A DNA stretch of 64,000 nucleotides, from positions 27,910,210 to 27,974,209 of the forward strand of contig OZ316893.1 of assembly GCA_973895155.1 (NCBI GenBank). The letters run 5' to 3'. Below the pieces are notes generated by a model. That model saw nothing but the letters and a program-made list of their open reading frames with translations, had not been told where the DNA came from and did not search any database. The DNA comes from Marsupella aquatica (taxonomy: Eukaryota; Plantae; Marchantiophyta). A program made the translations under genes and the position numbers. This document shows, one piece after another, positions 15,500-52,365 of the stretch. Position 1 is the stretch's first letter. Every line of letters begins with the position of its first letter.

Positions 15500-16772
15500 A
15501 CATACAGTCTTTATCGCACGGCTCCAGGCCAAGATTGACGGTTTGAAGGGACAAACCGTCAGTTGGCAAAAGGATCTGGAGGAAGCTGACTCTAGATCTC
15601 AGCGGGACACAGCCGAGATTGACACCCTGAAGATAGAGGTGGCGCGGCTTCAAGGAGAAGCCATGAAACAGGCCCAGTTGGTGGATAAGCTGACGAGCGA
15701 CACCCAACAACTGGAGGAGGCATGCCAGGACGCCGCGGAAGAGGCGGACGCGGCGAAGCGAGAGAACAAATCTCTGCTGGACCAGGTCCAGCTACTCAAG
15801 CAGGACGCCGACAGACTCAGAAGGCAGCGGGATAGCCTCTCCCACTCGGGCGGCTCTGGCAAGCGTGCCAGGCATTAGCGGCGGAGTAGGATTAAAATAG
15901 AGTAGGAGTAGCTAAATTAGGCTATAGGGACAAGCACCTGCCCTAGTTAAAGCAGCACTGCCATGCTGTACAACCTGCATAGATTAGGATCTTCTAATAA
16001 GACAAGCCGTTTTCCGGCCTGACAGCCAGCTTAGTTAGGACCTTAGTTAGCGAATCTTTGGGCGAGAGGGCACTCCGTTCCTCGGCCCTTAGTATTTAGT
16101 GCACCCCTCGGTAGAGGCAGGGGGATTTTTAGTCTCAGTGTTGGACATCCGCGGTATGTGCGGGGAGTCCCGACCTCTGGGAGTGAAAGAGTACCAAGGG
16201 GAGGGTGTAGGACTAAGCTTGTTGGGCGAGTGCGAAGCCGGGCTCCATTGTAGTGTACACCCTCGGCCTCAGACCTGTTCATTCCAGAGCTTTCGGGTCA
16301 ACTAAGTGTACGCATATGTCTCATATGTAGTAAATCCTTTCCCATTATTTCCTTTGTGTAAATCGAGATTGTATGCTTGTGTGTATGTATATGTGTGAAT
16401 CTCGTGTATAGGTGCCAACGCTTGACCGAATGCACTACCCATGCAAGTCGTGCACGGGGTGCAGCTTGCGAGTAAGTGGTTGCGAGCCCGGGTTGAGTAC
16501 CCATACCATCGAATCCGGATCGAAGGCGGACAACATGAAGGCTTAGAAGCCCGTAACCCGGGGTCGATCCTGCTATCGACTGAGGTACGTTCCGGCGGCG
16601 GAACACAAACCATACCTAAGAGGTGTCCGTATATGACAATAGACGCACTTAGCGCTAGTTTATGTGAGTTAGGTGCATTTCGTGCCTCCCTCCCTGCCCG
16701 AACCCTCATTTCTGACGAAGGATGTGCCTGTCTAAGCCGCAGTCCAGTTAAGGCCTAGGCTGACAACGTGAC
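15500..16772 (+). mobile_element. Truncated copy of the ORF-carrying LTR-like unit (same family as 18510-22426, opposite orientation)
   Basis: The coiled-coil ORF end (…WQKDLEEA…GSGKRARH) is nearly identical to 19384-19815. The terminus GGCTGACAACGTGACA is the reverse complement of TGTCACGTCGTCAGCC at 18510. The left boundary is approximate. Confidence 0.8.
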
Positions 16773-17480
16773 ATGTGGGATCTGCATCCCTAAGTAGAGT
16801 GACATCTCTTACTCTGCGTCCAGTGACTGCCTAAGCCTTTGTCACTCTCTTGGTGACAGTGATCAATCTGCGCATACAAGTGTATGCCTCACATAGACTC
16901 TCTCTAGTTGTAAGCTGGAACTCTTGGAGACCTTCAACTTATCAGTTCTCACACCCTGATAGTTCTGCTTCAGTACCTCAAAGAATTCCACCACAGGGTT
17001 GAATGCTGGCGCAACTCCAGTTCCTGTCACAATCACACTGGCAGGAGTAGTGGTGGATGTTGCTAGAGTGCTGTTGGTGGATGGTGTGCCACTCTGGCTA
17101 GTGCTGGTAGAAGAAGTAACAGTTGTGGCAATGGGTTGGGCAGCCGCACTAGTGCCATAAGTGATGGACACGTAATTAGGTGACTATTGCTGTCTCCATG
17201 CCTCAATCTCAACCAAATGAGCCTTCCAAAACTCATGGTAGTTATCCATAGGTGGCCCCTCCAAATGCTGAAATAATCCTTTCCATGCCATGAAAGGGGT
17301 AAACAACGTGGCATTATGCAATGTCTGCATATCGCACCATGTATCAAACTCCTGGATGAAGTCATCCAGATCAATTGTGCCAACTGCACCAGAGTATCGT
17401 CGTGGGCCCTTTGTAGCCCCGTACATCTCGTCCATATTCCACAACAACTCGGGGGGGTCACTATATGGAGGGTCATACAT
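16773..17480 (-). pseudogene. LTR-retrotransposon gag-like remnant
   Basis: YSGAVGTIDLDDFIQEFDTWCD…LFQHLEGPPMDNY resembles the capsid N-terminal region of retrotransposon Gag. It is disrupted by stops/frameshifts and by the 16772 junction. Confidence 0.6.
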
Positions 17481-18509
17481 CGCGTGCGACGTTTTAGGGT
17501 TTGACCCCCCTAACTTTAAAGTGAAAAATATTTTTTTGCAAAGCCCTTTCTTTCTTAAAATTTTGTCATTTTTTATTAAAAAACCCCTAAAAACTTTATA
17601 GAAAGTATTTTTTGCAATTAAATAGGCCTATGTGTTCTTTAAAGTCAACCAATCAATAAAACATGCCCTATGTGTTCTTCCACCAAACTTTGGAAGTCTT
17701 CCGCCACACCCATTTAAATGGGCCTATACTTCGTCGCACGTGATGTGTCACTTCCGTGGAAGTGACCCCCCCGAGCACAACAAAGGTGCAACCACCTGAT
17801 GACGAGGAGAACTGGTCACTAAGTCCTCATCAAAATCACTATCTGAAGCTGCACTGCTAACTGCTACCAATGCCGCTGGCCAAAACTGTGCCCCACTCCG
17901 AGTGAAATCGGTCCGTCGTCCATCGGGTAACCCAACAGCACTATAAGAATCTATGGTGACCAACCTAACCTAATCTATGTGCTAACCCTAAGGGCAATCT
18001 GTCCCTGTTAGCACCACAAGCACTCATCATGGTGTGTTGGGCATCACTCCAACATCACCAGGAGAGAAATACGTAGCACAACTAGAATGTCCGGTTGTAA
18101 ACCCGGATCATTCATATGGAATCAAGCGCCCACGCCAAACTAACATGGCGCATAAACAGGAAGCATATGTGGAGAGGATCCAATCAACAAGAAGAGATCC
18201 ACAATAACTCTCCACATCAAGAGTGATCATACATCAATCAAGCGATGTTCATAATGTTCAATGTAGGGCCTTCATAATAGGCTTCTCAATGTTCAATATC
18301 GTAGCTAAGGACCCATGCACAATTGGTTCAATCCATGCATCTAGGTGGATTCAGAAGTATCAAAAACCCTAAGAGAGCTTATGATTTGGTCCAAAATGAC
18401 AATCTAAACAAACCAGAATGTGTATAAAATGCCTAAATGCTCCTTTCATTAACATCAAAGTGGAAAGGAGTCTGTGTACACAAAAGAATTTAAGAACCAC
18501 ATAGTTAAG

Positions 18510-21500
18510 TGTCACGTCGTCAGCCTAGGCCTTAACCCAGTCTTTGGCTTAGACAGGCACATCCTTTGTGAGTATGAGGGTTTGGGCAAGGAGGGTCGCA
18601 CGAAATGTTCATAATTCACGTAAACTAGCGCTAAGTGCACTTACTGTTATACACCTCCTAGGTATAGTTTGTGTTCCACCGCCGGAACGTACCTTAGTCG
18701 ACACGGGGTTGACCCCGGCTCACGGACTTCTAAGCCTTCGTGTTACCGCCTTCGATCCGGATCCGTTAGTACAAGAGCTCAACCCGGGCTCGCAACCCCG
18801 TACCCGTATCCTGCACCCCGTGCATGGTTGGCATAATGTGTTTGGCTCGGCATTGATACTTGCACACGAGACTCATACATGCATACATAACAGAAATCTC
18901 AATTTACACGAAGGAATTTAAGGAGAAAGGATTTCATTCATTCATGATCATACACTTTATGATTGGTTGACCTGACACCTCGTGAACAACCGGGCCCAAG
19001 GCCGAGGAGTATACACTACAACAAAGCCCGGCTCCGCACTCGCCCAACGAGCTTAGTCGTATACCCTCCCCTTGGTACTCCGGTACTTCACCGAGTTTGG
19101 GATTCCCCGTGCGTACTGTGAATGGCCAACTTCTGAGTCTAAAATCCCCCTCCCTAACCTCTACTAGGGGGGACGCTAAATACTAAGGGCTGAGGACCGG
19201 CCTGGCCTCCTGCCCAAATCTATGCTAACTTATATCCCTACTAAGCTGGTGCTTGCTTGTCCTATTAGTCTAACCTATTCTACACAGGCTGGCTAATGTG
19301 TCAGCGCCGCTATCTTCTGGCCGGCACTTGTCCTACCAACCTGTTTTAGCTACTCCTAAGTCTATTCTAAGCCTAACCCTCCGCTAATGTCTGGTGCGCT
19401 TGCCAGAGCCGTCCGAGTGGGAGCGGCCATCCCGCTGCCTACGGAGTCTGTCGTTGTCCGCCTTGAGGAGCTGGACTTGGTCCAACAGAGATTCATTTTC
19501 TCGCTTTGCCGCGTCTGTCTCCTCAGCTGCCTCCTGGCATGCCTCTTCTAGTTGCTGGGCGTTGCTCGTCAGCTTGTCCACCACCTGGGTCTGTTTCTCG
19601 GCTTTGGCTTGAAGCCGTGCTACTTCGGCCTGCAGGGTGGCAATCTCCGTAGTGTCAAGCTGGGCCTGCTCTTTGGCCTCCTCTAGGTCTTTCTGCCAGA
19701 TGACAGTTTGGCTCTTCAAACTGTCAACCTGGGTCCGGAGCTGTGCAATCTCGGCCTCCTTCCCGGTTTTGGCTTGTTCGGCCAAGGCGGTAAGGGCATG
19801 CGCATTTGCTAACAACTCATCGGTGACTGCAACCTTGGGTCATAGTTGCAGAATCTCCACCTCTTGAGCTGCAACTTCATCCTTTAGGTACACGGATTCA
19901 ACCCGGTACCGCTCTATCCGCTGAAGGGCTTCCGACTGAGCCCGACCTGCTTTTACTACGGTAACCAACTCTTGATTGAAGAAGTAGGCTACCTTCCGAG
20001 CCATGAACTCCCCGGTATCCTGGGCTATCTGTTGGGAGAAATCTCCCAAAAGCCCATTTAGAAATGTACCCGGTACGAAGAGTCCTGGGTGGTCTAGGTT
20101 ATGCCCGTCCGGAGTTGGGCACGGGCAGACGTTAACTCGCGTGGAAGCCGGGGTAGTGACATCCAGCCCTGGGGATGTAGTGTTGGAAGGGGCTGGAGTG
20201 TCCTCCTCCACCATCAGCCGGCCTCTAGAATAGCCATTGGTGGGTCTTATGGACCTTCGGGCTCGGGCAAGGCCTTCACCGCCCCGACTTCTGCACCAGG
20301 CCCGGCCTGGTTGATTGCGTCTAAGGTTGCGATCACTGCCTCTTCCGGTACTTCTTCGGCCACGGCTACCGCTACCTGTGGAGGTTGGATGGGTGAGGCC
20401 TGCGTCACCGCCGAACTTTGGGCCTCGGGTTGAGGCCTTCTCTCAAAGGCCGGGAAGATCCACTTAGTCGGGACCAACTTAGATACGTTGACTCGGGGAA
20501 GGGTTCGTCGATCAAACCAGGCGTACCACTCGAGAATGATCTCGATGTGGCTCGTGAAATACGCTTTCCCACCGATGTATAGCGACTTCCTTCGCCGCTC
20601 CATCTCTTCATGGAACTTCTTAGCGAAGTACGAAGCCCACTTCCTAGGTCGATAGTTCTCAACCTGGATAACCTGGGCAGTGGAGATCTCGCTTCGGGGT
20701 TCCATCATGTGGAGGGCATACCTTTGGAACTCCAATCGCTCAACTATCTTGGGGATGAGGCAGGTCCTCATCACAAACCCGTTGTCCACTGACCCCTCGG
20801 AGGGAAAACTCGAGGATTGGTACTTGGCTCCCTTGCCCCCGGGAGCCCGTGATTCGACTCGGTGATCATCCTGAGCCGTTCCTCTATGAGGGACATATTC
20901 CTCCCCCGCAGCCGAGTATGTTGACGGATGTCATCATAATTCTTGACGAACTCTGCCATATCCTCCCCGTAGTATCTGCAGGTGTTCCAGGGGAGAGAGG
21001 CGAGGTGCTCGAACCCCTGAGTCTTCAAGTACACCGCATGTTTGGGGTGGAGGATGTTCTTATGCATGTTTTCCCCCATGCGGTGCATTGTTACCTTGGC
21101 CGCGGCTACCGTGGCCATGGATAGCCCGGTATAGCTGCGGGTTCCTTCCTCTTCCTTCCCCGAGACTGGCTCGGGGAGGGTGACACCTCCCCATCCTCTC
21201 GATCGTGTGTAGGTAGTGCCACTACCGTTAGTATTGGAGCCGGGGCAGCTACGGTCACCGTGTTGTCCGTTGGAGCCGCTACTCTGGTCCGGGCCTGGGG
21301 AAGGGGCGATATAGTGCCGGCTCCCTGGGTACTTACTCCTCTAGGCTGCCTGAGCAGGGGAAGGTAGCCTCTTTGTCGTTGTTGAGGTCCATAGCGTTGA
21401 TGATGGATCTCACCTATAGGGGCGGGGGTTGGCTAAGCTGAGGCGGAGCCTGAGCCTGAGCTGGTGCTGGTGCAAGCACGGCTGGGCTGGCACCGGTGGT

Positions 21501-22960: not shown

Positions 22961-25614
22961 GTTTCACTTCGCAAACATGCACGCGATAGTGCCTCTGACT
23001 GCGCTACTGATCAGCAGCAGCCCGCATCCGCTACCAAACAACAACATTCAAAGTTCTATTTCTTCAACAAAATGCAGAGGTCGACATGCAAGTTCTGCAA
23101 AATTGCTATAGTTGTTGCACGATTCAACAACATCTGTGGCTGTTTCCCTTGCGAAAACAGCAGATCGGCCCAACAGATCTGCATACGACGATGATGCAAG
23201 CCCGATCTATCAACATCCGCACCTCAAGAGGCCCGATCTACTTCACAAAAATGCGAACAGCAGCATACTGTTCGTCGAATGGCAGCACAGATCAGACACA
23301 AACTTCTCAACACCAACTATAGCGAATCAAAATACCGGCAATCCACTCCACGATCCGAGGTACCACAGATCAAAACAACAGCTTCACAGCTCCAATTGAT
23401 TCGATCTACCGCAAATTGTCAATGACAAACTCAGACTGAGCTTCTGTCCGCACAATAGAGTTTGAAGCTCCTGATCGATCTTTCAATGTAATCTTCTCAA
23501 CAATCGGCACAACGATCTCGGTCAACAATACCCCATCAATCCCGCACCGATCCGATCACACATGTATGTCAAGCCAACGCACCTTGCACTACTCAAAGAA
23601 TCCACGTTACACAAGCGGAGCTCACAGCCACCATAGCCACACTCAAGCTCCTCTCTCTCCAAGGCTCAACATTGAAAGATGACCTTTCAATGCCTCACAA
23701 GAGAGAAGTACCCTCTCACTCAAACCTAATGGAACCTTATCGGCTCATATAACACACATACCAAACATACGGATCTAGATAGTACGATACACTCTAACAT
23801 TACCTAGAATGGTGTGACATTGTCGAACCTCCATATGTTCGATTCAAGACATCGGACATCTCTTCCAGCATGTCACTTTCTTCAAGTAGTTGGGTGATAT
23901 GATTGGCAAGGACATCTTCAATGTCATCATCAGACAATGCCCAATCAGCTGTCCACTATTTGAATTGAGCACTGAGCACGTTCCATAAGGAACACAGAGA
24001 ATTTCCAAAAGGACCATAGGATGAAAATTTGTGTTTGACCCTAGAGAGAAGGACAATGAAGCGAGAGTGTGAATTTCTATCTCGAGGCAACATAGATCAT
24101 ATACACATAGTCCAATCAACAATTCCACATTGTTCAAACCCAATATGATTTTGTGCCAATTTCTGAACCCACCCATGGCTTGAAAGAAGTGTGCCATTGA
24201 TTGAACGGAGCAATATCAGCTGAAACTCTCGTGAGATGGACAGATTCAATTGCACAGACAATTGCGTCCAAGAGCAAAATGCCAAGGCCAGGGCACAGAG
24301 GAGCGCAAATTTGTGAAATTGGATGCAATAATTCATGCCAACAAGAGGTCAAGGGAAGTATGTCCAATGCACAAGCTGGTGCAAGCTTACGCAATAATTC
24401 CTTGAGAGAGTAGACTGGAGCAAAAGCACCACAAACGACCATGTGCCTCGCCTATAAAGTAACATGTGTCCATGTCATATAGCTCATGGAAACTATCCTG
24501 TAACGGGTGGGGTTGGGGGTGGGTTCTGACAAACCCCGTGAAGCATATAGCACATCCCAATAATAGCTGGGTCATTGCGCTCTATTAAGGTATAAAGGAA
24601 CCCCGTCAGCGTTGGAGATGCTCTTATGGGAGCACTCAGGAGAACTTGAACGATCATAATAAGGAGGAAGTTCGGAATGACCGAAGCAGGCTTTGCAGGT
24701 TTGCGAAAGTCACAACAAGATTTTTTTTAGTAATTTATCTGTTTCTCAGAATCTGCTGTCGAAGGCCTTGGTACTTCAGATCGGGCTTCGGATTTCGCGG
24801 ACGATGTCGAGATTCCTCGAGGCTTCGCTTCTGCAGAGGAGATGAAGCAATTGCATCGAATCTTCATAGTTCCGCGGGCGGCTCGTGCAGCCCTCGATTA
24901 GCCGTGATCGGATGAAGGCCTCCTGTATTTCAAATTTTACGGACAATGTGAGCTTCCTCGGGGCTTCGTTCCCGAGGAGGAGATGGAGCAATTTCTTTGA
25001 ATCTTCGTAATTCCGCGGGCGGCTCGTGGAGCCCTCAAATTGCACACGACAACTTATTGCACTCTTACACGTAATCAAGTTGTGTATAGCTCGCATCATG
25101 TACTCATTTTGCTCTCTGCCATGTCCTTCCCCTGCCACTGTCGTTCTTCACATCAGCCTCTTCAAGCTCATTTCGTCACTTTGGATACCATCCTCTTGCC
25201 TTGGTTCATCGTACGCACTCTGAGGCGGTTCACCCTCATGCTGGTTAGGTCGTAGTGCAAGGCGAGGCTCTATATTTCTTTGAGTTGTTTTTTGTCATCT
25301 CAGTCGCTGACACTCGATTGTGGGATAGGATCCCTCTGCCAAGCGGTTCTTCCCACTTACGTAGTCTTGATTTGAAGTCACTGTGGAGAGTCCAATCCCG
25401 TGTTCACTTTCTTCTTGTTGATGACAGAGACATTCGATTGATGAGGTTAGGACCCTTGGTTAATCTACCGCTGGGTGTGCCAAATGCCCATATCATCAGG
25501 TCAGTTTGCTTCCGATAGAAGGATATAATCCTGATTGTAGACCCTTCTCTCGGGTAAGTCCGTGCTACTGGGAATTGTAAGTGCACCTCGATCAATTTCA
25601 GGGATTGAAATAAG

Positions 25615-26229
25615 ATGTCAACTTTCGACAAGCGATCTCTGGAGTTCAACATCGTGTCTGCCAATGACCTGAAGAAGGTGAAGAGCTTCGGCAAGCAGAG
25701 CTGTTTTGTTGTGGTCTATGTTAACCCTTCTCAAAAAATGTCCACTAAGGTAGACCGAGTAGGTGGCAGGAACCCGTGTTGGAACTCCAAGCTGATTGTC
25801 ACATGCGACGAGCAGATGTTCATCAAGTCCGGTTCATACATCACCGTGGAGATATACTGCTCAGGGCGTATCACCAACAAACTCGTGGGCACTGTCTCTA
25901 TTCCCTTGCATGAAGTTGGCAGAGATGGAAAGTCCGGTGCCACCAAGCCCCAGGTCATGGCGTACCAAGTGCAGAGGCGTTCAGGAAAGATTCAGGGGGT
26001 GCTCAATATGGCTGTGAAACTCGGGGAGAAGAGAACCGTTTCGACTTTGCCTGCCCCTCGTGTTTATGGTAAGCAGCAGGCCAGAAGCGGTTCAGGTCTT
26101 CCGACTTTCCCTCACTACTCTCAGCAATCTTATGGATCTCAGCAGCAGTACTACGCCTATGGTAGTCTTCAGCCGCACAGCTACGGAGGCCATCAGCAAG
26201 CCATGTGGCGGTCTACTCCTCAGTTTTGA
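25615..26229 (+). CDS. C2-domain protein, SRC2/BAP-like, with Q/Y/G-rich tail
   Basis: LEFNIVSANDLKKV…STKVDRVGGRNPCWN…ITVEIY…KLVGTVSIPL…YQVQRRSGKIQGVLNMAVKLG is a plant SRC2-type C2 domain; 204 aa, intact. Confidence 0.85.
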   Translation: MSTFDKRSLEFNIVSANDLKKVKSFGKQSCFVVVYVNPSQKMSTKVDRVGGRNPCWNSKLIVTCDEQMFIKSGSYITVEIYCSGRITNKLVGTVSIPLHEVGRDGKSGATKPQVMAYQVQRRSGKIQGVLNMAVKLGEKRTVSTLPAPRVYGKQQARSGSGLPTFPHYSQQSYGSQQQYYAYGSLQPHSYGGHQQAMWRSTPQF

Positions 26230-28400: not shown

Positions 28401-30992
28401 CTTTCTTTTTTAATTTTTTTTTAAAGGGGAGATCCCCCACATCCCCCACAACTTTATGCCACCGGGAGACCCGGACAAAAGAAAACATCTGCCTGATAGG
28501 AGGAGGCAAGGAAAAAGACCAATTAATGGGGGCCAATGAGAAGAAGCACACCCAGAGAAAAAGGAGGACCCTCCCTACCAGACTGCCGGAGAGAGGGGCT
28601 AGTCAAAGATGGCAGGAGGGGGCCAAACAAAGCCAGATGGCAGAGAGTACCTATAACTAACATAGAACCAGAATGAACCAGAAGCAGCAAACAAATAGCA
28701 TGGAACCCAGCCAGACATCCAACTGATCACCAACTAAGTTCCTTCCTCCCTTGGCAGACCACCCAAATAAACCCTCCTGTCGTCAATGAGAGAACCCCGG
28801 GACCTTGATTACCAGGAACACTGATAAAGCTAGCCGAGGACAGTCCCATATGGTCCGCCAACCGGGACGAACCGCAAACATTGATCTGAGAAACCAACTG
28901 ACCGAGGGGTTGTGCCGAATAGTTGCCATCATTCGATGTTTACTTCCCCCCTTCCCATACTCGCCTTAAGGCATTCCCCGAATACTTCGGTCTCCCAGAA
29001 GACAGATGGTTTGAGATTCCCCTGTGGATGCAATACTCTGCGCCTGCCAGCCAAGGCACCCCAATAACATGTGGGTAGCAATAGATACTCTGCAGGAGAG
29101 GACAGAATAACCTTACTCTGAGCCAGAAGAGATTCCTGATTGTTGAAACCACTCATTGGGACAGAGAATATCTTACTGCCATGGAGCAACCGACCAATCC
29201 GATTATCCCAATAATCCCAATTGTTCTCCAGCATACAAAGTAGCCTGCTCAAAGGAGGATGGATAGCTCAGAGAGAGTCGACCATATTGATTGTCTTGGC
29301 CAGAATCCCTGCGATGAATACTGCCAAAAGCCCACACTAGATTATAAACTCAGACTGCCACTGACTACATTGTGTGATATCTATAGTCAAACGATTCCCA
29401 TAATTATCCAGATGATCATCTTATTCCTGCCTAGAGATCAGACATTATATCTGAATCATAGCTGGATAGAGAATAAGTGAAAAGAAGAATTTCTAATAAT
29501 GCATGCTACGAGAGAAGATTCAAAAGCCAATCCAGGAGAGATTATGCTTCAAAGGAAAAGAAAATACATCTATCACTGCAAATAACAACTTTTTTTTTTT
29601 AACTTTTTGTTTTTGTTTTTGTTTTTGGGTTTCTTTCAGAAGAAAGAAAAAGGAAGCCAATATTGGTTGACAAGCGCCATCAACGAGTCCATGGAAAAGG
29701 GCAAGGTGGAAATCTGCAAGAGAGGGCACCGGAGAACCACACAACCACCTGAATAGTGGGGTTCAACACCCAATAGAAGCAGCCGACAGATGGCTGCAAA
29801 ACGTGACTCCATAGACAAACACATCACTACTTGAGTGACAGAATCAGGGACTATTCGGCTATGGGAATGAACAAGGGTAGACAAAGGAACTTATTAATAG
29901 GGACAATCAGGAACCATCATCGAGGAACAGATGAAAGAAAAGAAGGATACTTATAGTAACCTCAAACAAACAGCGGGGAACAGTACGAAGAAAGTTGTAT
30001 GGGAATATTATAAATAGACGATTGGTACTAAGAACAATGATCAAAAATACTTGGGATAAACAAAATGAGTATCAACGATGAGAACGATGGGCAAGAGGGC
30101 CTGAGATGAATTTTTCTGCGTAGTGCAAACGCATTTTTGTTTCTCAATGTCTGAGCAATAAGCCACCGCGTGGAGATGCTGAACAACGGCAGAAGCGGCA
30201 GCAAAAGGGGAATATACAACAAATATGTTCTGGAACAAACGAAGGTTACGATTTTTCTAGAGAAGCCACACTGTTTCATAAATTACATAGATCCGAGCAG
30301 TGTGCCTTGGAGAATACCCAAGGGCCAAATCCAAGGTACTAGGGAAGGAATGGCCCCCCGGAAGATGAGAGAGAGTTGGTATTCTCTCAAAGAACTATAT
30401 GGTTCTGTTCCAGGCGATAATTGCTTGCTGACAAGAGAAAAAGATGTGTTGATTATCTTCAACTCCTTGTCGGCAAGCTGGGCACCTGCCATTTCCATGT
30501 CCACATTGTTGTGCGCGCTTGCCAGAGAATAGTCCAGCTGCAAGGACTCTCCATAAGAATATCTTTCCATGATTCGAAAGATCAGAACTCCAAAGTCTCC
30601 TCCATCGATGCTGCCAGATGGCACCAGAGTCAGATGTGCCCCATCTGGTATCTAATGCACAGAAGTCACCTTCAGACCTGTCCAATAGTTTGTACGCGTA
30701 TGTGCTACTCATAATACGAGGGGACGGGTGATTCTGGAGACCCTTCCAGAACCATTGAGATTGAACGAAGGATAAAGATCGGGAAGGTGGCAGACCTGAC
30801 TCGAGAAGAAAAATAATTCTAGAAAAGACAGCCAATTCTGAATCACTATACCCTCTCAACCTAGAGATACGGGACGAGAAGTCAATCCATTCAGAAGATT
30901 GCCAATTCCACAAATCCGAGATGGCTCTAATATTTATACGTGAATATGCTGTGATGATCCTTGGTATCCTTGGTATCCATGGTATCCATGGT
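28401..30992 (-). mobile_element. 5'-truncated L1-type LINE with 17-bp TSD
   Basis: AAAATAGTGTACTCTTT lies at 28384-28400 and 30993-31009, with a poly(A)-like tail (T-run on +) right after the left copy. ORF 30395-30913 encodes a zf-RVT segment (GKIFLWRVL…CPAC…EDNQHIFFSC). Confidence 0.85.
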
Positions 30993-32247
30993 AAAATAGT
31001 GTACTCTTTTACTATGCCAAGAACATTATTGACTACTCATGGTAAAATGGATCCACCAGGTTTTGTTTTGGGGACAGTGGTGGGGGCTTAAGTTTTTGCA
31101 CAGGCTATTATTCTGTTAAACAGATGATTTAAAAATTAAATTAAAAACACACATGGGCTCCCTCAGGAGGGGTCAGGGGTAGAGACGGGTACATTTGGTA
31201 CCTGGTTTTAAAAAGCATTGTACATGCATAGGAGCCTTTCTCATTCGGACATGAATTGAATAATGTCCCTTTGGAGCCACATGTACACTGTTTACAGTAG
31301 TTTACTTAATGTAACTACCACAACTACATTATCAGGACTCTTTACGTGTTACATGAAGACGTTAAGCCCGACGTCTCCTTGCCGCTAAAGAAAGGCGTCA
31401 CACTTGACGTGAATGAGGGCACGTTTTGTACGAAGTAATGAAGGTTACAGTTTACATCGTTCTCTACATTGTTACATACGTCTCAATGTACTACGTTACC
31501 TATTAACATCATAAATAGAGTCGTTATTTTGGATGCAGATTGAACAGGAAAATCACCATATAACATCGTTTAAAATGACGTTAAGGTCATATTACGTAGT
31601 TTGTGATGTCGTTAATGATGAGTCTGTCCCAGACGTATGAGTAGTAAGTCGTTTGAGGCTTGGTATAGATGGTGTTAACGAGAACGTTTGAAAATAGTAC
31701 CAAGAATGGAGAGACATGAATGGAGTGCCGTTTAGGGTAAACATTAATCTTGTATGTCACATCCTTCCAGGCTACCTTAGTTGGGTGGGCTTTAGGTTTA
31801 GGTTCATATACACATGGAATACACATAAAATAGACATATGAGTCGGGAATGCCACTATAAATGGGTGGCGTCAAAATTCTTTGCCAAAAATGTACAACAT
31901 GCAGGTGGACGTCCACCTAGTCATGCATGGTATACCCTAATGCCGCTGAGAGCGGCTCCTATCACGTCCAGACCTGCGAACAGAAAAAGCAGGCGGTGCC
32001 TTCGACTATTTGCCTTGGGGCTGCAACTCGTACCGAAGTGGATCCTCCTCTGAACTACTGCTACCAGACACCAACTCCGCAGCTCCACTGCCTCTCCTCC
32101 TCGGGACTACATCTCTAGTGCCACTGGGTCCCCTAGTGGCATCCCTCTCGACACGGCTCCTCCTCCTTTCTCTATGTCTCTCCCTCCCTCCCCCTCTCTC
32201 CCTCTCTCCCTCCCTCCCCCTTCTCTCTCTCTCTCTCTCTCTCTCTC

Positions 32248-33368
32248 AAGAAAAGAGTATGATAAGCCACTAATGATTCCCATGGCTAAGGATCATGATC
32301 TCATCATATGTGGGTAGGTCCCATGACATGCACTACGGACATATACCCCCTGTCACCTGATACAAGGATAAAGTTAAAACTAAAATCCAGAATAACCAGG
32401 AGATAATCATCCGGCCACCAGAGCCATTGATTTATTCCCAAAACATCTGGGCCACACAAAACAACCAGATACCAAAGCCCATGACCTAAAAAGCAAGCCA
32501 AGATAGCGGTGCTACCAAGTCCAGCCATCCAGCCACAGAGCTTACATTTCTCTGAAAACACTCGATAGGTGAAGAAGCACACACCATGTGGGGAGCATAG
32601 GCTGACATGCATGGCAGAGTAAGAGGACACACTGCACTGGCAAGAAGATCGTGGGACCAGCAGCGCAGGCCAAGGATCAGGGACTGCTGAGGCAACACAG
32701 TGACACACAGCCTGTCGTGGCTCAATGGGAACCCCACCAAATCAGGTGCTAAGCTCACATTTTTTTACAGCAGATGTTGCTCCTTCTTTTCTATTCCATT
32801 CACGACATATTGGTATGCATTAATGTGATGTTGGAGTTAATAATAAAAAGGAACATAACAAGGCTTGGGAGACTCGACTTTTTCCGGCCCATGTCTCCCC
32901 GCAGCCGTCTAGACATCGCTGTAGAACATGGGACTAGAAATTGTGCCTATTAAAGCACAATCTCGATCCAATGGCGGGGGCTGAACGAAGACATTGGAAT
33001 TGTGAATGAAAACAGTCCGTCCATTCCTGGTAAAAGAATATGGTCCATGCTCAATGCTGTGGACACAACGTTTGAGTACAGCTGTCACCAAGCAGAGCTC
33101 AGCATCGAAAGATACTCAGCTTTATAGACCTAGTTGTTTTGAAAATGGACAGTTTATAAATAAGAGTCGCTATACAGAATAAGCATGTCTGACTTCCATG
33201 GTTAATAGACGTTCGTAGTACCAAAAACTATATGTGTGAATGTATGTGTGAATGTATGATCGATACTCTACATATGATTGAATGTTGAATCAAGGAATGG
33301 CCAATAGAGAACAATAGGACCTGCTTTAATGTAGGATGTAATATATCTATGGATATCTATATATAATA
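32248..33368 (+). mobile_element. ~1.1-kb non-coding unit bounded by (TC)n tracts; divergent relative of the Penelope-like terminal repeat
   Basis: Begins right after (TC)13 (32222-32247) and ends at (TC)5 (33369-33378). It carries the same structured RNA motif at a similar offset as the 1.37-kb repeats but is otherwise not alignable by eye. Confidence 0.65.
32878..33036 (+). ncRNA. Structured RNA motif, copy A (candidate ribozyme)
   Basis: Stems: CTTTTTCCGG/CTGGTAAAAG (closing), CCCATGT/ACATGGG, GCAGC/GCTGT, ATTGTGC/GCACAAT, TCCAATG/CATTGGA (loop GCGGGGGCTGAACGAAGA), GAATG/CATTC. Pseudoknot TCCCCG/CGGGGG. Confidence 0.7.
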
Positions 33369-34748
33369 TCTCTCTCTCAATACATGAAGATAGAATATGC
33401 CAAGATGTTCAAAACAAAAGATTAGAGCAAGTACAGATAGGCCAGAGAGTACAGTAGAGACGTTACGCAAAATATGTAAAACATAGTAATGTTTACACCT
33501 TATATATGTAATATTAAAGTCCTGTAAAAATATCCCTATTAAACACGTACGCTGCACCAGCACCCTTTGATCACATCAAGTACAATAGGGTACTCCAACT
33601 CTCGTAAGCTCATACTTCACTAGCGGCTACCCTAAACTCTGGACATCCGCTACTTAAGACTCCCCCACACAAACAAATTTTCATCCACACATTTACGCAT
33701 GAGCACATTTTTTGAGTAAGTTCCTAGCTCCTCTGTTCCTAGATCCTCTGTTCACAGCACGACTAGCACTTCTCGCACGACATTTTTAGGACCACTGAGA
33801 ACGGCCACAGCAGCACTACATCACAGCCTGACACACACACGGAAATCGCCCTGCAGCAACAACAAACTCAGCATGGCTCGTACCAATCAGGTATACACTC
33901 ATAAAACATCCATCTTTTTCAATGAATTTTTTCCTCGTTTTTTGCTAGCCTAGTATCGGTTCATGTCTCCCCGTTACCGCCGCGGCTAGAGGTAGCAGAA
34001 ACATGGAACAGGGATTGAATGCAAATAACTTTTAATCCCGCCCCGGGGACGGGGGCTGAAAGACGACCCTGGGGTTTGTGATGCAGAATATGTCTACTGT
34101 ATTCCGATGCTAGTTGAGGGTCCACATCAGGCAGATTGACTTGCTGCTATGATGAACTGCGTAGAATGTCCGGCTTCAAGAATGAAGAGGATCGCCTTAA
34201 CTTTTTTTGTATGCTTCTAACCGTGGCCCCTAATACTGACTATCGACTGTCGGCAGTTAGCATTCCAGAAGGTTTCTTTTCTGAGATTACAGCGACACGA
34301 TTCCGGCACATCTAACTTCCGATAAACTTAGATTTATTGTAGAATGGTTAAATACTGACTTTACGTTGACCATTGCCTAACGTATGAACAATAGTTATTA
34401 ATGGCAGAACTTCATCATTCTATTCTACTCACGACTCTGTTTAGAAAGATCGCGCACGACCTGACCACTTGCCTGGATTACATAACGCTTTTCTGTCAAT
34501 TTCTACTTACGATCTTGTTTAAATATTTCTGGTCTAAATCATTTGGTACGCATGAATAAATTCTTGATTAAGTGTCTATCTATGGTACACCTCGATAACA
34601 TGAATGACTTGGTATGTGGAGTATTAATAGAGACATGACTGGTTACCAAGACTCTATGCTGTGATGACTTTGCCTATGTGTGGTGATTTAGTACAGACTT
34701 GACAGTGGCCTTGACTGGGTGTTTTTTCTATGAAAATTATCTCTCTCT
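33369..34748 (+). repeat. Upstream pseudo-LTR (~1.37 kb direct repeat) of Penelope-like element
   Basis: Nearly identical (scattered substitutions and small indels) to ~39047-40424. Both ends fall in TC tracts; there is no TG...CA and no PBS. Confidence 0.9.
33950..34113 (+). ncRNA. Structured RNA motif, copy B (candidate ribozyme)
   Basis: Stems: CTAGTATCGG/CCGATGCTAG (closing), GTTCATGT/ACATGGAAC, GTTACC/GGTAGC, GGGATTGAA/TTTAATCCC, CCCCGGGG/CCCTGGGG (loop ACGGGGGCTGAAAGACGA), GAATA/TATTC. Pseudoknot TCCCCG/CGGGGG. Confidence 0.75.
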
Positions 34749-35187
34749 AACATATACCACTTCTCCGATTGGGTTCGGAGGACCGCTGTCAATCCTGATA
34801 CTAATATAGACATATGCGCATGACTGTTCACAGAAGAGATGGATACGGGAACTCCAATCTCTTGGATATATGGATGACATACCACGCCCTTGTAATATGG
34901 CCATTCAAGTTACATTGGCTTCCATTTTGGCAGCATGAAATCCATACTGCCATACAGACACATGATCGAGAGGTCATGAGCCGTGGGATAGATGACGAAC
35001 CAGGTCAGTTACTACTTCATGTACTCGGAATCTCCGAATGGTTTACCATTTTCCATGCTGCCGGTTGTGTTGGTACCACTGCCGCACTCGAAAATCTAGA
35101 TGAATATAGTAACTGCCTGTCTAGCTTTGAAATATCGATGAAGAGGAGCTCGAGCAGGCCAGGCTAATCGGACAAAAGATTGCGACG

Positions 35188-36336
35188 ATGCTCTCTTATA
35201 CCCCGAATAGCAATGTCACAAATGATAGTTTCTCATCATCGAACGCCTCTGACGTCGCAACCAAACTTCGCGCCAATCCATTACTTAATACTGAATGGCT
35301 ATCGCCTGAGGAACGTATTGCATTTAATGAGTCTATAGAAGGTGCTCAGTCATCCCAGAGAGAATTAGACGATTCAAAAAAAGATGGTGAACCATTCGTT
35401 CCTAACACTCCACCTAGATTTCTAGAATGGGAGTCCTCTAAGGTTGACTGTTGTATGTGGCGGATTCCAAACATCAACAACCTGGCTCCACTGTCTGTCA
35501 GTATGTGGAAAGCATGGGCTTCCTTATCCCCTGAAGATATCAACAGTTGTCGGGAGAATGCTTTACGTGGTTTCTCATGGATCGAGAAATCTCCCATGTA
35601 TGTTACGCGATGGCCCATGACTGTATTTGGTGCACCTAAATACAAATGCCCTATCGATGCGGGTGTCAAAATTTGAGGTAACTTCGTTACCAACACGTCA
35701 CGCTCAACACAGGAACACAAGACCAAACTTTGGAATTGGCACCGACCATTTCTTCGATGTACCTACAGTGCTTCATCCAAAAATGGGTGCATGGGCCAAA
35801 TCGTGTGGTTTGACCATGCCATATGGTACATGGCTAATCACCTTGAATTATTTTTTAATGCATCGACAGCACAAGGTCGACTGGTACTAATGATGAGTTT
35901 TCTGGGAGGAGATGCACGCCGTATCGTTATGGACCAAGTGGCCTTCATCTTGGTGCAACAATTCATTCTTGACGCTGCTGGAGAGCAACTCGTCGACCCG
36001 AACGCATAGTTACTGGCAAAATACGGTAATGCCTCTGGGGCGCGCATTATCGAGGCTCTTATCAAACCTGGGGAATTTTCTGATCAAACTCCAGCTCCTA
36101 AACGAAAATGGAACCTCAATCAGACCCCTGCTTCTGACCTTGCCAAACAAAAAGGCATATACGCCAATCAAACGCCACAACGAGGACGAGGCCGTGGAAA
36201 CTACTCATGGCAGCCACAGACTCCTAATTCATCTTTAGGTGCTCCTAGCCAATTTGCGGGCCCACAGTCTTGCGCCAGTACCCCATCGTCTGATAACGGC
36301 CAGTCACCACTGCAACGACGTAATCTTCACTTTTAA
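35188..36336 (+). pseudogene. ORF1 of Penelope-like element, unknown function
   Basis: A single frame 35188-36336 with two in-frame stops (35674 TGA, 36007 TAG); W-rich core and a C-terminal RGRGRG/low-complexity tail. It probably extends upstream across a frameshift near 35130. No GIY-YIG motif was seen. Confidence 0.6.
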
Positions 36337-36673
36337 ATAGCTATGGGTACTTAGCAGTAGGCAAATAAACCACTAACGTGTTTAAGTTATGATGCACGTA
36401 TTATGGCTTCTATAGTAGTACATAGAGAACCAGTAAAACGTTACATTACAGCTTTCCATTCCTACTTAGTGTTTGCTGATACTTAAAATGTTTTGATTAA
36501 CCACCATCCTAGGTTAACTTTTATGTTCAGTCTCGTATTCAATCAACCTTGCAATCAACTTAGAGCGGTTATACTTAATGGGTCCAAAAGTTTAGCAGAA
36601 CACATCGTCTAGCATCAATACAGGCAAACATCACTACACCTCCGGATCTAATAGACATCACACTATATATTCT

Positions 36674-38842
36674 TTGTTTGTGTGTTCAGATGATCGGCAG
36701 CTCGTTCAACTTCCACACGGTCGCTTCTCTATTTCCCGGAATCCTGACCATACCGGCATACGATTCATACATCTCTTATACACTAGTAGAGCTTTTGAAT
36801 GGCTACCGCTACGCCTAATCTTTACACAATGCCTGTCACAAATTAATGCATCTGATTCCATTCCCGCGCTAGATTCTATTTGTTTTAGTTGGAGATATAC
36901 TCCCCCGATTTCCACACTGTGCTATCACCCAACCCAAGTCTTCTGCGATTTTGAGTGTATGAACCTTGCTTCTGATCAGACGACATGTTGCTGTCAGACT
37001 AATCGGTTAAAAAAATTCCTTGATCCACTTACACGAAATGAGCACCAACTTCCATCCACCAAATATAACATCCATGTGCGCACCACTGACTTAGGGCTCA
37101 TCCATGACAAGCATCTCAGATCTGCACTTTCCTCTAGACTCAATCACATCATACCACAGGCTACTACTTTTAACGATGCATTCCAGGAAATTGTAAGAGC
37201 TTGGGATAACGTGTGCAACATTTTACAACTATCTGAGATTCTTATCAACTTCGGCACTGAGGCCCTTCACAACATCTGTCACACCTTGTGGTCAACCGGT
37301 AAGCAACGCAATATTGGAAGACATCAACGACACTTACAAGGACAACTATCTACAACGGCCATCTCCAAATACGATATCTCCTCGAGCATCTATATTTTTC
37401 CGGCCTTGATAAGGCTGCTAACAACGTTTGCATCATGTGCATCCACCATATTCGAATACAGGCCCTACATCGACTACAAGGCGAAGACTTCACTCTCGAC
37501 TCACGACTACTCAAAGATGTAGTCAATACGTGCCAAGCACAAATTGAGGAGCTCATCCCCGAAATCGTATTTTGGTATGCTGGTCTTCCGTTCCTTATGG
37601 CGTCATACAAGTTGCACAAACACAAATATCGGTGGATTACCAATGCTGCTTCATGCATTTTTTCAGGACTTACTCGTATCATCACAATGATCCTTGGCCA
37701 AATTTCCATCGAACTCAAAGCCTGGGCATTCAAACAGTCTGAATATCTACGTACTTTCTTTCGAGTAGAGACCACATTTTTTTGGGTTATTGATTCTTTA
37801 TATGAGTTTACGTTGAATCTACCACCCAACATACACTATTTGTATGTTGCGGACATCACTAGATGCTACGAAACCATTCCACTGTCTGGTGACGATAATC
37901 TGCCCGATGCCATTAGCCATGTTGCCAAAATTGCCTTTTCACACCACAACTCCTCTCGACGAAGGCAAGAGAAACTTTGGATAAACATCGACTTGACCAC
38001 GGGTCTTGCCAAAGAAGCTCGTTGGGCATGCCGTATGCCTGGGACATCATGCTGGATTGAATTTTCATTGGAGCGCTTCATACGACTGCAGACATGGCTA
38101 ATACAACACTATTACATTCGACTTGGAGATCAAACTTGGCGACAGTCTACTGGCATTCCCATGGGATTTTCGTGCTCCCCACAATGGTGCAACCTTTACT
38201 TTGTTTCATACAAAATCAGATTCGTCCAAAGGTTAGCTCGACTAAAACAACATACACTACTCAATGACTTTCATTTCACGTACCGGTACATTGACAATTT
38301 CTGCATCCTTAACAATCACAACATAAGTCAATTCTTGGACACGTCAGCACCACGTACACCGGATAATCCATATTGGATATATCCTCTACACATTGTCTCT
38401 ATGCAACCAGAAATTGATACTCACAAGCCTGGACATCCCACTATCGGCACGTCTGGACATTTTCTCAATGTCCATATTGACATACTGAACCAACATAGCG
38501 GCTTCTTTGAAACCACCCAATTTGACAAACGTCACTCCCTTCCATTCCCTTTTCAGCAATACATCCAATTTCGGTCTAATCGACCTGTGAGACAGTCCTA
38601 CAATATTGTCCTTCTCACAGGTGGTCCCTATTTTGCATATGGCTAGTAACGCTGACCTGGCCTTTTGTGAAATTCGTATTGTTGTCAACACTCTAGTAAA
38701 CAATGGCTTTTTTCAGTCCCGCCTAGATCGAATAAGCTTTAAATTTTGTACAACCAAATCCTTCTCGGGAATACGCTTCCCACTAGATAACCTTATTACG
38801 CTTTTACTTGAACACATGAACTGGCGCGCTGTCCACATGTAA
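36674..38842 (+). pseudogene. Penelope-like (Naiad/Chlamys-type) reverse transcriptase, frameshifted, no endonuclease seen
   Basis: Linker CCCQ…FLDP…HVRTTDL…LRSALS, then LDKAANNVCIMC, YVADITRCYETIP, QSTGIPMGFSCSPQWCNLY, YRYIDN (normally YIDD), GHFLNVHI, FDKR and a thumb ending VNNGF. Frameshifts lie near 37360 and 38612. Confidence 0.85.
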
Positions 38843-38875
38843 ACAAATATAGCGAGGAGATGTCAAAAGAGGAGA

Positions 38876-38987
38876 AGTTGTGAGTATGGTATGCACTCCC
38901 CGTCTGGGGTGAGTGCAATGCACTCCCCGTCTGGGGTGAGTGCAATGCACTCCCCGTCTGGGGTGAGTGCATACCGCACTCACTACT
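38876..38987 (+). repeat. Long hairpin whose 27-nt tip is triplicated, in the RT 3' UTR
   Basis: ATGCACTCCCCGTCTGGGGTGAGTGCA x3 (38891-38971), enclosed by AGTTGTGAGTATGGT / ACCGCACTCACTACT. Confidence 0.9.
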
Positions 38988-39023
38988 GATGGGGGTGCCG
39001 CTACCATGGGTATATGGAGGTGG

Positions 39024-39026
<3 letters not shown>

Positions 39027-39059
<33 letters not shown>

Positions 39060-40424
39060 ACATGAAGATAGAATATGCCAAGATGTTCAAAACAAAAGAT
39101 TAGAGCAAGTACAGATAGGCCAGAGAGTACAGTAGACGTTGTGCAAAATATGTAAAACATAGTAATGTTTACACCTTATATATGTAATATTAAAGTCCTG
39201 TAAAAATATCCCTATTAAACACGTACGCTGCACCAGCACCCTTCGATCACATCAAGTACAATAGGGTACTCCAACTCTCGTAAGCTCATACTTCACTAGC
39301 GGCTACCCTAAACTCTGGACATCCTCTACTTAAGACTCCCCCACACAAACAAATTTTCATCCACACATTTACGCATGAGCACATTTTTTGAGTAAGTTCC
39401 TAGCTCCTCTGTTCCTAGATCCTCTGTTCACAGCACGACTAGCACTTCTCGCACGACGTTTTTAGGACCACTGAGAACGGCCACAGCAGCACTACATCAC
39501 AGCCTGACACACACACGGAAATCGCCCTGCAGCAACAACAAACTCAGCATGGCTCGTACCAATCAGGTATACACTCATAAAACATCCATCTTTTTCAATG
39601 AATTTTTTTCCTCGTTTTTTGCTAGCCTAGTATCGGTTCATGTCTCCCCGTTACCGCCGCGGCTAGAGGTAGCAGAAACATGGAACAGGGATTGAATGCA
39701 AATAACTTTTAATCTCGCCCCGGGGACGGGGGCTGAAAGACGACCCTGGGGTTTGTGATGCAGAATATGTCTACTGTATTCCGATGCTAGTTGAGGGTCC
39801 ACATCAGGCAGATTGACTTGCTGCTATGATGAACTGCGTAGAATGTCCGGCTTCAAGAATGAAGAGGATCGCCTTAACTTTTTTTGTATGCTTCTACCCG
39901 TGGCCCCTAATACTGACTATCGACTGTCGGCAGTTAGCATTCCAGAAGGTTTCTTTTCTAAGATTACAGCGACACGATTCCGGCACATCTAACTTCCGAT
40001 AAACTTAGATTTATTGTAGAACGGTTAAATACTGACTTTACGTTGACCATTGCCTAACGTATGAACAATAGTTATTAATGGCAGAACTTCATCATTCTAT
40101 TCTACTCACGACTCTATTTAGAAAGATCGCGCACGACCTGACCACTTGCCTGGATTACATAACGCTTTTCTGTCAATTTCTACTTACGGTCTTGTTTAAA
40201 TATTTCTGGTCTAAATCATTTGGTACGCATGAATAAATTCTTGATTAAGTGTCTATCTATGGTACACCTCGATAACATGAATGACTTGGTATGTGGAGTA
40301 TTAATAGAGACATGACTGGTTACCAAGACTCTACGCTGTGATGACTTTGCCTATGTGTGGTGACTTAGTACAGACTTGACACTGGCCTTGACTGGGTGTT
40401 TTTCTATGAAAATGATCTCACTCT
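39027..40424 (+). repeat. (TC)15 plus downstream pseudo-LTR copy
   Basis: Direct repeat of 33369-34748; ends at ATGAAAATGA|TCTCACTCTC, where the host ORF resumes. Confidence 0.9.
39627..39790 (+). ncRNA. Structured RNA motif, copy C
   Basis: Same as copy B; the C>T change in AATCTC keeps pairing as G-U. Confidence 0.75.
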
Positions 40425-50000: not shown

Positions 50001-52365
50001 CAGTTTCTGAAATATTGACTCTCATATCAGCTACGGGCGCTAACAATGAAATAGATCTTCACTGCCATAGCAGCGCCGGGCGCTAACCAAGGAAACCAAT
50101 TATACTTACATTTTTTCCAGATCTTGTTGATTCACTTGGGGCCGTAGTATCTGCTTTTGCTTTGGCGCAAGGCTTCCTGCTTTGGTCAACATGAACAATT
50201 GTTGTCTTGCATATTGTTTGCAATCGTGTTGTGGATTGATCCACATCGTCCGGAAGCCCCTGATTCATGTCAGAAACAATGTTGACTGGGATCTGGGACT
50301 TAGACAGCTTATGGAAAGCATCCTTTTCTCTGTGATCAAAGGGCGAGTCCCATCTATCTGTATCTAGGTACCATGGACAATGGGTTCTCTCCCATTCACT
50401 TAAAGGTCTTGCTGGGAAAATTCCCTTGACAGGATACATAGAATACAATTCAGCTAAAGAATCACTCTCCGGTACTACAGTCCACTTGAGGAAGGCGGCG
50501 GGATACGCCCAGAAGTAATCAGGTTTTGTAGCTTCCATGTGGATGTAAAAATGGTAGAGGTACCATTTTGCTCGCTTCTGGTTCTTCAAAGAGTAATCCT
50601 CTTTGTCAGGATACTTCGAGGGCCACATTGTATTAAAAAACTTACCCTTGACAGAGTCACCGTATTTCCTAAAATCATTCGTGTCTATGTCAATGAGAGA
50701 TTCGAATGATTCACATGCCCAATCTTGTAAACGATTCACGGGAATGGTTTGTTGGACCTCTCGCAGAGCACATTGCAACATCCCCACCGCAATCCCTTCT
50801 ACATTATTCCATGTAATCCAAGTGTGACACCACTGTTTTACTGGATCATCATTGACGCTATTCGGATGGAAGAATTGTCTCCAGAGCTCCGGATTGCAAT
50901 GTGCTACAAGCAAAGTACTTTGTAGCTTGGCGTCAAGAGCCAAAACAGCTGTAAAAAGCCTAGCCCGGTCCATGGTACACAATACGGTATCTGGCTTCTT
51001 CTCCCGCTTATTCCTCTCCGTGACAGCATACATTTCTGCGCACATAGACAGAAAGTCCTCAAACTCTGGACTCAACAAAGGAGTGATTTTTGAGGTCTTC
51101 ACTGCCCATTCCTTGGTTGCTTCCTTCATCATAACGGCATGCCTTCTGGAAACCTCCTCGACCGACCAAGGGGAACCGAGGGCCGCAGCGGACTCCATGT
51201 CAATCTTGAACTGGTTCAAATACGACTTAATCTTATCCTGACATAGAATGTACACAAGGGCCTCCTGAGGCATCTTCTTTGTGTACCAGGATCCTTTTCA
51301 CATCTTCATCCTGATCTGCTCAAACTTCTTGTAATTTGCAGGGTCGATGAGCTTACTATAGTACTCCAGGTCATGCATCAAGATCCGCTTAATTCGATCG
51401 GCATCTAGGATCCAGGAGGGTTCCACAACGGCTTGTCCAAGCCTGAAATGCAAGAATGAAATGAGAAGAACATATAAGCAACGTCGGGCGCTCGTAAAAC
51501 ATAGCCTCGGAAAGTTATGCTAGAAAGAATGAACAATTCACAATGACTCACGAAGTTATGCACAAAAGAGTATCTTACTGATTAACGGTATGCATAGCCA
51601 CTTCGATTTCTATCAGCGAACCCTTGTCGCCATTGAAAATAGTACAAAGTACACGCGGGTGGTACTTTGGGTTTCGGGACTCTCCTGAGTGACAAGAGTC
51701 CACGAATAAAGCCTATGGTTCCCGTCAAAAACTGAGAACATTTTGTCCTTCAAAACCAGAAAATCTGGGTCGGCAGCACATTCTTCCTCGAATTTCTCAT
51801 TCTCAGATGTCCATATTGGATCCCAACTCTCACGAATTTCTTGAGTACAGGTGAGAAGCACTCCCTCAGCATCGGTAGGCTGAACGTAAAACCTCATTCC
51901 AATCGAAGAATTGTATCCCATGCTAAGGAAGCAATCTTTGAGCTTGTCGATGGAAGAACTATCTTTCTGTAGAGTTTGGACAACCTCCATATGCACCAAT
52001 CGACATAGTGGAATTCGTGGAGGCTCTTTGTCAAACCCTCTGAAATCCTTCCCAAATGACATGACATGTTTTGAAATAAGATCCGTCTCAGAAAACTAAA
52101 CATCTTGAATCGCAAATGTGTCAAGATTCTCCATCTTCTTTCTCGCTGGCTTGGCAAATGAAATACCAGAGATTGGAACAAGCGATGCGGTGGACCTCAT
52201 TACTCGACGCGTATACACCGAACCAGAGAATGAAGACTCAGAAGACTCACAATATCCATGATCCTGATCCCCAACCACACTATACCCCCTCGACAAGGAG
52301 CGGATTGCATCCATCGTCTTTACGATGAAAGGTGTACGAACAGAATTCTCACGACTGATTACCAA
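44045..52365 (-). pseudogene. Multi-exon gene: ParB/Srx-like N-terminal domain plus C-terminal beta-class N6A/N4C DNA methyltransferase-like domain; split by the 45019-49072 insertion
   Basis: IPLCRLV…IDKLKDCF…VFDGNHRLYSW (ParB-type DGNHR, ~51712-51726); a large middle exon (~51440-50110); FIYLPTG…KWN…FLSDDGMLAIL (degenerate motifs IV-VI); THPRDIFMDWTVGSGSSFVAGDYSGRFVIGVE (motifs X-I-II, ~44700-44790). Several stops and frameshifts. Confidence 0.7.
45019..49072 (-). mobile_element. 4.05-kb solo-LTR-like unit (TG...CA, TSD CAAGG/CAAAG) with internal ORF
   Basis: TGATAAAG…CTTATCTCA; the flanks differ by one base. Removing it restores the host frame (…PKTDRQ, ~87-nt intron, IFATIFMLRLDV). The internal minus-strand ORF 48218-46794 (PLLYPEKPRRVTV…, coiled coil) has stops. 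Confidence 0.7.

Follow-up and report, generated by a model that had tools for sequence, protein, structure and literature searches.

A candidate self-cleaving hammerhead variant of permuted block order in the repeats of a Penelope-like element from Marsupella aquatica

Within a stretch of 64,000 nt from Marsupella aquatica (assembly GCA_973895155.1, contig OZ316893.1, positions 27,910,210-27,974,209 of the forward strand; hereafter the window), a Penelope-like element (PLE) carries in its repeats a structured RNA motif of about 160 nt, and it is this motif that concerns us here. Judging from its letters and their variation, we think that the motif is real and under selection, and that it most likely works as a self-cleaving variant of the hammerhead ribozyme, with cuts predicted after C33967 and C39644, a reading to which we would give a probability of about 0.62.

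The motif is found on the plus strand as copy A (32878-33036), copy B (33950-34113) and copy C (39627-39790), at the coordinates given by an initial annotation of this DNA, and the cut positions predicted there (32895, 33967 and 39644) each fall on the C of CATGTC. What did not survive is the idea of three independent copies. B and C lie in the two pseudo-long terminal repeats (pseudo-LTRs) of the element, each of about 1,380 nt and on the plus strand (33369-34748, which begins in a (TC)n tract, and 39047-40424), and because these repeats are 98.8% identical, differing at 17 of 1,377 aligned positions, the window holds only two independent sequences. Indeed, copy C equals copy B apart from C>T at 39715, which turns a G-C pair of hairpin P3 into G-U. 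Each repeat has one motif copy, with a spacing of 5,677 nt from B to C, and copy A sits 330 nt upstream of the first pseudo-LTR. Over the motif A and B are 64% identical; that their repeats do not otherwise align, as had been claimed, is borne out by flank identities of 49% and 53%, against 51% for random pairs. By eye, a possible short intron (33891-33948, with CAG/GT, a pyrimidine tract and TAG) ends 2 nt before the closing stem of copy B, and a like CAG/GT context lies upstream of copy A, at 32746.

Hammerhead blocks in the order site-GAAA-CUGA

The mapping of the motif's invariant letters onto a hammerhead core, put forward in the initial annotation, holds up well. Numbered by analogy with the hammerhead, and all on the plus strand, block S (33960-33973) would comprise a stem III strand (33960-33965), U16.1 (33966), C17 (33967), with the predicted cut at its 3' side, and a stem I strand (33968-33973); block G (33997-34007) would comprise A33997, G12-A13-A14-A15.1 (33998-34001) and the second stem III strand (34002-34007); and block C (34050-34066) would comprise the second stem I strand (34050-34055), C3-U4-G5-A6 (34056-34059), an extra A (34060), a variable N7 (34061), G8-A9 (34062-34063), N34064, G34065 (the candidate G10.1) and A34066. 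Stem I abuts C3 and C17, stem III abuts A15.1 and U16.1, each has 6 pairs, and U16.1-H17 stands in register between them. GAAA followed by stem III is present in B and C, and contigs of the A type have GAAA as well. The letters from C3 to A9 are all present and invariant after stem I, but with one A added behind A6; this extra nucleotide, already pointed out in the initial annotation, is fixed.

In both B and C the blocks run site, GAAA, CUGA (S-G-C), and a search for the blocks in any order agreed that this is not a circular permutation. With 6 pairs demanded of each stem, that search yields only B and C in the real window and no match in 30 shuffles of it, and not one of 20,000 shuffles of B gave stems I and III of at least 6 bp in any block order (1 of 20,000 did so at 5 and 4 pairs). 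Block C occurs exactly three times in the window, with one further match at two mismatches, against 0.12 expected, and block S three times against 0.28, a count reached in 1 of 100 shuffles. Near 6520-6656 and 51960-52096 the minus strand has AU-rich matches to the blocks, which were taken as chance. The order itself can no longer be called new, as it has been published as type SGC and shown to cleave (Eckert et al. 2023, PMC10085705; statements from this and the other papers cited draw on part of each source).

The motif also departs from a hammerhead in stem II. Between A9 and G12 no stem II of at least two pairs is found, in line with the earlier remark that a canonical one is lacking: at most there is the single pair G34065-C33996, flanked by mismatches and competing with hairpin Px. 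The strand before GAAA pairs locally, in Px, and only three letters lie between A9 and the closing of hairpin P4.

In Rfam, the motif matched no family at gathering score; one chance match appeared at E 0.74, and no ribozyme even at E 10. The lack of a hammerhead match is to be expected, because the block order is non-nested. Might the motif instead be some other self-cleaving ribozyme, in which hammerhead-like words (GUC, AGAAACA, CUGA) serve another active site, for example one that docks like the hairpin ribozyme at a multiway junction? A multiway junction and a size of 160 nt set it apart from known hammerheads, AGAAACA and N-GUC resemble the loops of the hairpin ribozyme, A33997, A34060, A34066 and a junction UGU shared by A and B are invariant and have no hammerhead role, and relatives of the element's reverse transcriptase (RT) have another RNA in the same slot. 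However, both hammerhead stems adjoin the core in exact register, and, judged by eye, neither helix 2 of the hairpin ribozyme nor the second strand of its loop B can form. An unrelated new motif, the other option of the initial annotation, is unlikely. With the Rfam result on the same side, we regard a different ribozyme as distinctly improbable.

The scaffold and its variation across contigs

P1, stem III, Px, P3, P4 and P5 form a nested scaffold that is conserved across diverged contigs. In copy B the closing stem P1 (33950-33959/34104-34113) closes a five-way junction. Hairpin Px (33973-33996, pairing 33973-33978 with 33991-33996) is inserted between stem I and GAAA, P3 (34011-34039, pairing 34011-34019 with 34031-34039) has a variable loop, P4 (34041-34074, pairing 34041-34048 with 34067-34074) holds block C in its loop, and P5 (34080-34103) pairs 34080-34086 with 34097-34103, all on the plus strand. 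This register of P5 is a corrected one: drawn as GAATA/TATTC, the fourth arm of B had taken up C34104, which already belongs to the closing stem, and all three variants that fall on that arm break it. TTGTGA, once listed as invariant, varies at 34076, 34077 and 34080. The broader claim, that A and B keep the same junction while their stem sequences differ, stands, with 46 of 50 pairs forming in both; the count of four arms does not, P3 being a further covarying arm.

Matched by hand, the 50 pairs divide into 23 that are the same in A and B, 8 changed on one side, 15 changed on both and 4 broken, all of the last belonging to copy A. When the 3' partners were slid by 1-3 bases, 8-16 of 50 pairs were left, a control that is biased in the structure's favour because the structure was derived from those same sequences. 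The fold of B has a z of -3.59. P4 shows double changes in 3 of its 8 pairs, and this helix connects stems I and II at their outer sides, as membership of type SGC requires. Inspection of the motif by eye found no conserved kink-turn.

Further variation came from four public runs of two studies, which contain 79-85% of sampled words and one of which is possibly the source sample itself; their contigs were aligned at 80% likeness. In the run that we call X1, summed contig depth, which is not copy number, rises to as much as 1,868 over A and 1,686 over B, against 70-308 in upstream bins, and loose contig ends cluster at the 5' edge of the motif. The depth peaks mean that many diverged repeats have the motif in common, and not the flank. 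In each of two runs 71 contigs lie on B, of which only 9 and 8 are at least 99% alike. Among the B variants (40 of the 42 at 5% of depth or more were considered), none of 14 core positions varies while 13 of 33 loop positions do (Fisher p 0.005), one of these variable sites being the N7 position.

For copy A, the best 40 of 298 variants include a double change at 32971/32994 and letters that restore 3 of its 4 broken pairs. The initial annotation was right that A itself has only GAA; for the family this does not hold, as the lost base is a deletion private to A. Behind 32924 this fourth letter of GAAA is present in 4-5 contigs per run across the four runs, and 5-8 more per run stop at 32926 with loose letters that start with that A. 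The missing A, together with the pair-restoring letters in other contigs, makes A a worn copy of a second subfamily. Most A-type depth (714 of 913 in run X1) has C at 32922, giving the same G-C pair.

These comparisons also bear on whether the structure is simply a by-product of repeat evolution without selection. There are just two independent full sequences, and a test of stem variants (below) is not significant, both of which would suit such a view; but 15 of 50 pairs have double changes while the flanks stand at random identity, and the contrast between core and loop variation and the shuffle tests point the same way. We consider an origin without selection largely refuted, and very improbable indeed.

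Proposed working and the points that weigh for and against it

How might such an RNA work? We propose that stem I forms as a pseudoknot of 4-6 bp between the P4 loop and the internal loop lying above stem III, and that this would bring CUGA-A-N-GA next to the strands with GAAA and GUC. Taken by itself and before any loop cost, the stem I duplex contributes -9.7 kcal/mol. In place of a full stem II, the likeliest stand-in would be the single pair G34065-C33996 (the canonical G10.1-C11.1, with one additional letter on either side), flanked by N34064.A33997 and A34066.G33995. This pair could arise by one step of branch migration, in which G33973-C33996 and C34050-G34065 (the ground fold) exchange partners to give G33973-C34050 and G34065-C33996; the first of these would then be pair six of stem I, and Px and P4 would brace stems I and II. 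A read-through tandem transcript cut at the predicted sites in both repeats would yield an RNA of unit length (5,677 nt), and by analogy with other PLEs we infer a role in trimming tandem transcripts to unit length, the role proposed for PLE hammerheads (PMC4209133).

A good many observations weigh against this picture and deserve to be set out together. To begin with the variants, 11 of the 19 stem variants on B keep the pair, 2 would need a partner change that is also seen, and 6 break it; under a matched null 8.8 pair-keeping variants are expected, and the excess is not significant (P 0.12). The pseudoknot shows almost no covariation: stem I is identical in A and B, and its sole support of this kind is one change from U.G to U-A, in 2 and 1 contigs. 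G34051>A, at 11-18% of depth, breaks the fifth pair of stem I, G34065>A is seen in 2 contigs per run, and the variants at 33973/33996 and 34051/34064 suit the ground fold better than the migrated one. The variant data lean slightly toward the ground fold without deciding between the two, and the variants at these two pairs of positions may be methylation decay. As for folding, copy A reaches a z of only -1.62, its minus strand folding better (-50.9 against -45.9), and adding 50-150 nt of flank upstream, or 150 nt downstream, shifts population from the nested fold to other nested folds, by up to 3.8 kcal/mol, in a calculation whose scoring leaves the pseudoknot out.

Homologues are a second source of doubt. 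None was found outside this organism among viral contigs, prokaryotic genomes and 14 loci with related RTs, and in those 14 loci the motif was missed by pattern, by covariance model and by de novo block search alike. The covariance model has little reach, having been built from three sequences (A, B and C) on an imperfect automatic alignment. Pattern matches in viral contigs (2 and 34) and prokaryotic genomes (10) were rejected as chance, as all 46 loci scored 8.7 bits or less with the covariance model; RT alignment found no relatives of the RT in viral contigs, and a string search of the supplement to Craig et al. (PMC8557442), in which line breaks could mask a match, did not find the motif blocks. 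The motif may be confined to one lineage.

Finally, the literature offers cautions of its own. An insertion after A6 (A6a) lowered activity in the one natural case (PMC3088659), a full stem II is required in SGC-3 (PMC10085705), and the anole element inserts in vitro without cleavage by its hammerhead, which is dispensable there (PMC11167929).

It is at this point that a more modest account has to be weighed, namely a hammerhead-derived fold that cleaves poorly or, without the help of a protein, splicing or a second copy, not at all, or that now serves as a packaging or RT-binding structure. The extra A after A6, the want of a full stem II, the competing folds in longer context and the anole result all suit it, as does the weak activity in vitro of metazoan PLE hammerheads (PMC4209133). 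Against it, all 14 core positions are invariant in contigs of the B family, as expected under selection for catalysis, and stem III is long, like that of the fungal PLE hammerheads that cleave as monomers (PMC4209133). We think this account unlikely, although it deserves to be taken seriously, and continue to favour a motif that cleaves itself in the manner of a hammerhead.

The element, its relatives and known systems

That a PLE lies between the repeats is confirmed by translations that contain an RT with DKA and, upstream, CxC. The RT (36596-38842, plus strand) is spread over three overlapping frames with CxC, DKA, GIPMG and RYIDN, and is preceded by an N-terminal open reading frame (ORF; 35131-36336, plus strand) that two stops interrupt and that is homologous to the ORF upstream of the RT in 6 of the 14 related loci. 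Relatives of the RT number 120, and the best of them are 43-47% identical to it along most of its length; the only one with an organism's name comes from the moss Ceratodon, so that the element itself points to a plant as its likely host. No Pfam match to GIY-YIG was found in 7 ORF pieces of the window, those of the RT included, or in 5 relatives. Because it has DKA, CxC, an N-terminal extension and no GIY-YIG, we would assign this broken element to the endonuclease-less PLE-X (Chlamys) type, its likeness to PLE-X proteins being judged by eye.

The element's own (TC)n tract is immediately preceded, on its 5' side, by a conserved element (39003-39056, plus strand) that is also present in RT relatives (L003, 4178-4228; L005, 3503-3530; L006, 3870-3924; L008, 5370-5422; and others) and that may let this endonuclease-less element prime on (GA)n ends. 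Upstream of the tract, 38876-38987 consists of three tandem copies of a 27-nt hairpin unit, and L004, L005 and L007 have one similar unit. In B the motif lies 572 nt, and in A 631 nt, after the (TC)n tract, and six of the related loci, of which L009 and L010 are almost the same, have another conserved RNA at 390-1,150 nt past theirs, marked by the blocks GACATNGATAACAA and ATGGGCNNAGGTGAGG (L004, 6280-6426; L007, 2119-2267; L008, 420-545; L009/L010, 9125-9280; L012, 8390-8545). Over five aligned loci, 9 of its 21 predicted pairs have a double change; it has no hammerhead core, and the L004 copy has no meaningful Rfam match. We regard it as a separate ribozyme candidate, and it appears that the slot is conserved and its occupant RNA is not. 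A pattern for this RNA gave 15 raw matches in viral contigs. L004 and L008 have terminal direct repeats and in L007 the RT is split across the contig ends; these three look like complete unit-length elements, tandem or circular, of 5.4-6.7 kb.

Elsewhere in the window there are a long diverged inverted repeat (15600-19662, segments 75-92% complementary), a C2-domain ORF (25609-26229, plus strand), a zf-RVT fragment of LINE type (30395-31036, minus strand), and a GC-rich region (56223-59900) with long ORFs of 967 and 257 aa and a weak coiled-coil-type Pfam match below cut-off.

Among known RNAs the closest comparison is type SGC (HRIMA-1 and variants), for which cleavage has been shown and which is described, in the part of the report drawn on here, from metatranscriptomes only, with no known host or role (PMC10085705). 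The two have in common the S-G-C order, a stem I pseudoknot of about 5 fixed pairs, and a block C that lies in the loop of a hairpin, the stem of which begins immediately 5' of the stem I strand. Type SGC, however, spans at most 104 nt, with CUGAUGA, a real stem II and short linkers, whereas the present motif, about twice as large at 164 nt, reads CUGA-A-N-GA, has no more than one canonical pair in stem II, uses Px and P3 as linkers, closes a five-way junction with P1 and P5, has two helices entering the core, and is set in a genomic retrotransposon. Compared by hand with the pattern published for searches (CUGAUGA(U)G, CGAAA, 2-6 further pairs in stem II, and linkers of at most 8 and 15 nt), the motif does not fit in the core, in stem II or in either linker (more than 20 and more than 40 nt). 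By the published definition it falls outside type SGC, although it has that order; its novelty lies in a stem II that is opened, an extra A that is fixed, its size and its place in a genomic retrotransposon. Within the literature searched, which leaves most subscription papers outside its coverage, Eckert et al. alone describe such a permutation, no permuted hammerhead in a retrotransposon was found, and the part consulted of a 2026 preprint (10.64898/2026.07.22.740005) mentions only types I and III. The published permutation scheme assumes that the stem II strands stay with blocks C and G (PMC10085705); if the present RNA cleaves with an opened stem II, that assumption breaks and the ribozyme search space widens.

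The individual oddities are on record. Natural hammerheads with an A6a insertion, or with a stem II of a single pair that a pseudoknot braces, have been reported (Perreault et al. 2011, PMC3088659), but as rare and separate variants of circularly permuted ribozymes, and here they are combined and fixed in two subfamilies. Like the hammerheads of other PLEs (Cervera and de la Pena 2014, PMC4209133), the motif occurs once per pseudo-LTR, on the sense strand, with an extra nucleotide after A9, and by eye it resembles the hammerhead of Chara PLE-X1_cBra (PMC8557442, supplement) in the GA-C-G and C-A-GAAA flanks at the first G-C pair of stem II; unlike it, PLE hammerheads, that of PLE-X1_cBra included, are of type I, nested, with a hairpin stem II.

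The element itself agrees with Chlamys PLE-X (Craig et al. 2021, PMC8557442) in DKA, CxC, the lack of GIY-YIG, an N-terminal extension with a WFDHAIWY-type stretch, a partial tandem with pseudo-LTRs and an association with microsatellites, and differs in lying at (TC)n rather than (CA)n or 28S rDNA, in its broken ORFs and in a candidate ribozyme that is non-canonical. Most Naiad/Chlamys elements are reported there to have no canonical hammerhead, and some Naiads have a 'half core' with the second half 35-50 nt away; such half cores might be permuted RNAs of this kind, and a cleaving example with stem II opened would bear on that report. Our fuller proposal, which we hold only tentatively and at rather less than even odds, is of an SGC-order core whose stem II has opened into a branch-migrating four-way junction acting as a folding switch, within a 160-nt five-way scaffold. 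It would then be the first non-circularly permuted hammerhead linked both to the genome of a plant and to a known job, and the failure of canonical searches to find ribozymes in the Naiad/Chlamys branch would be explained.

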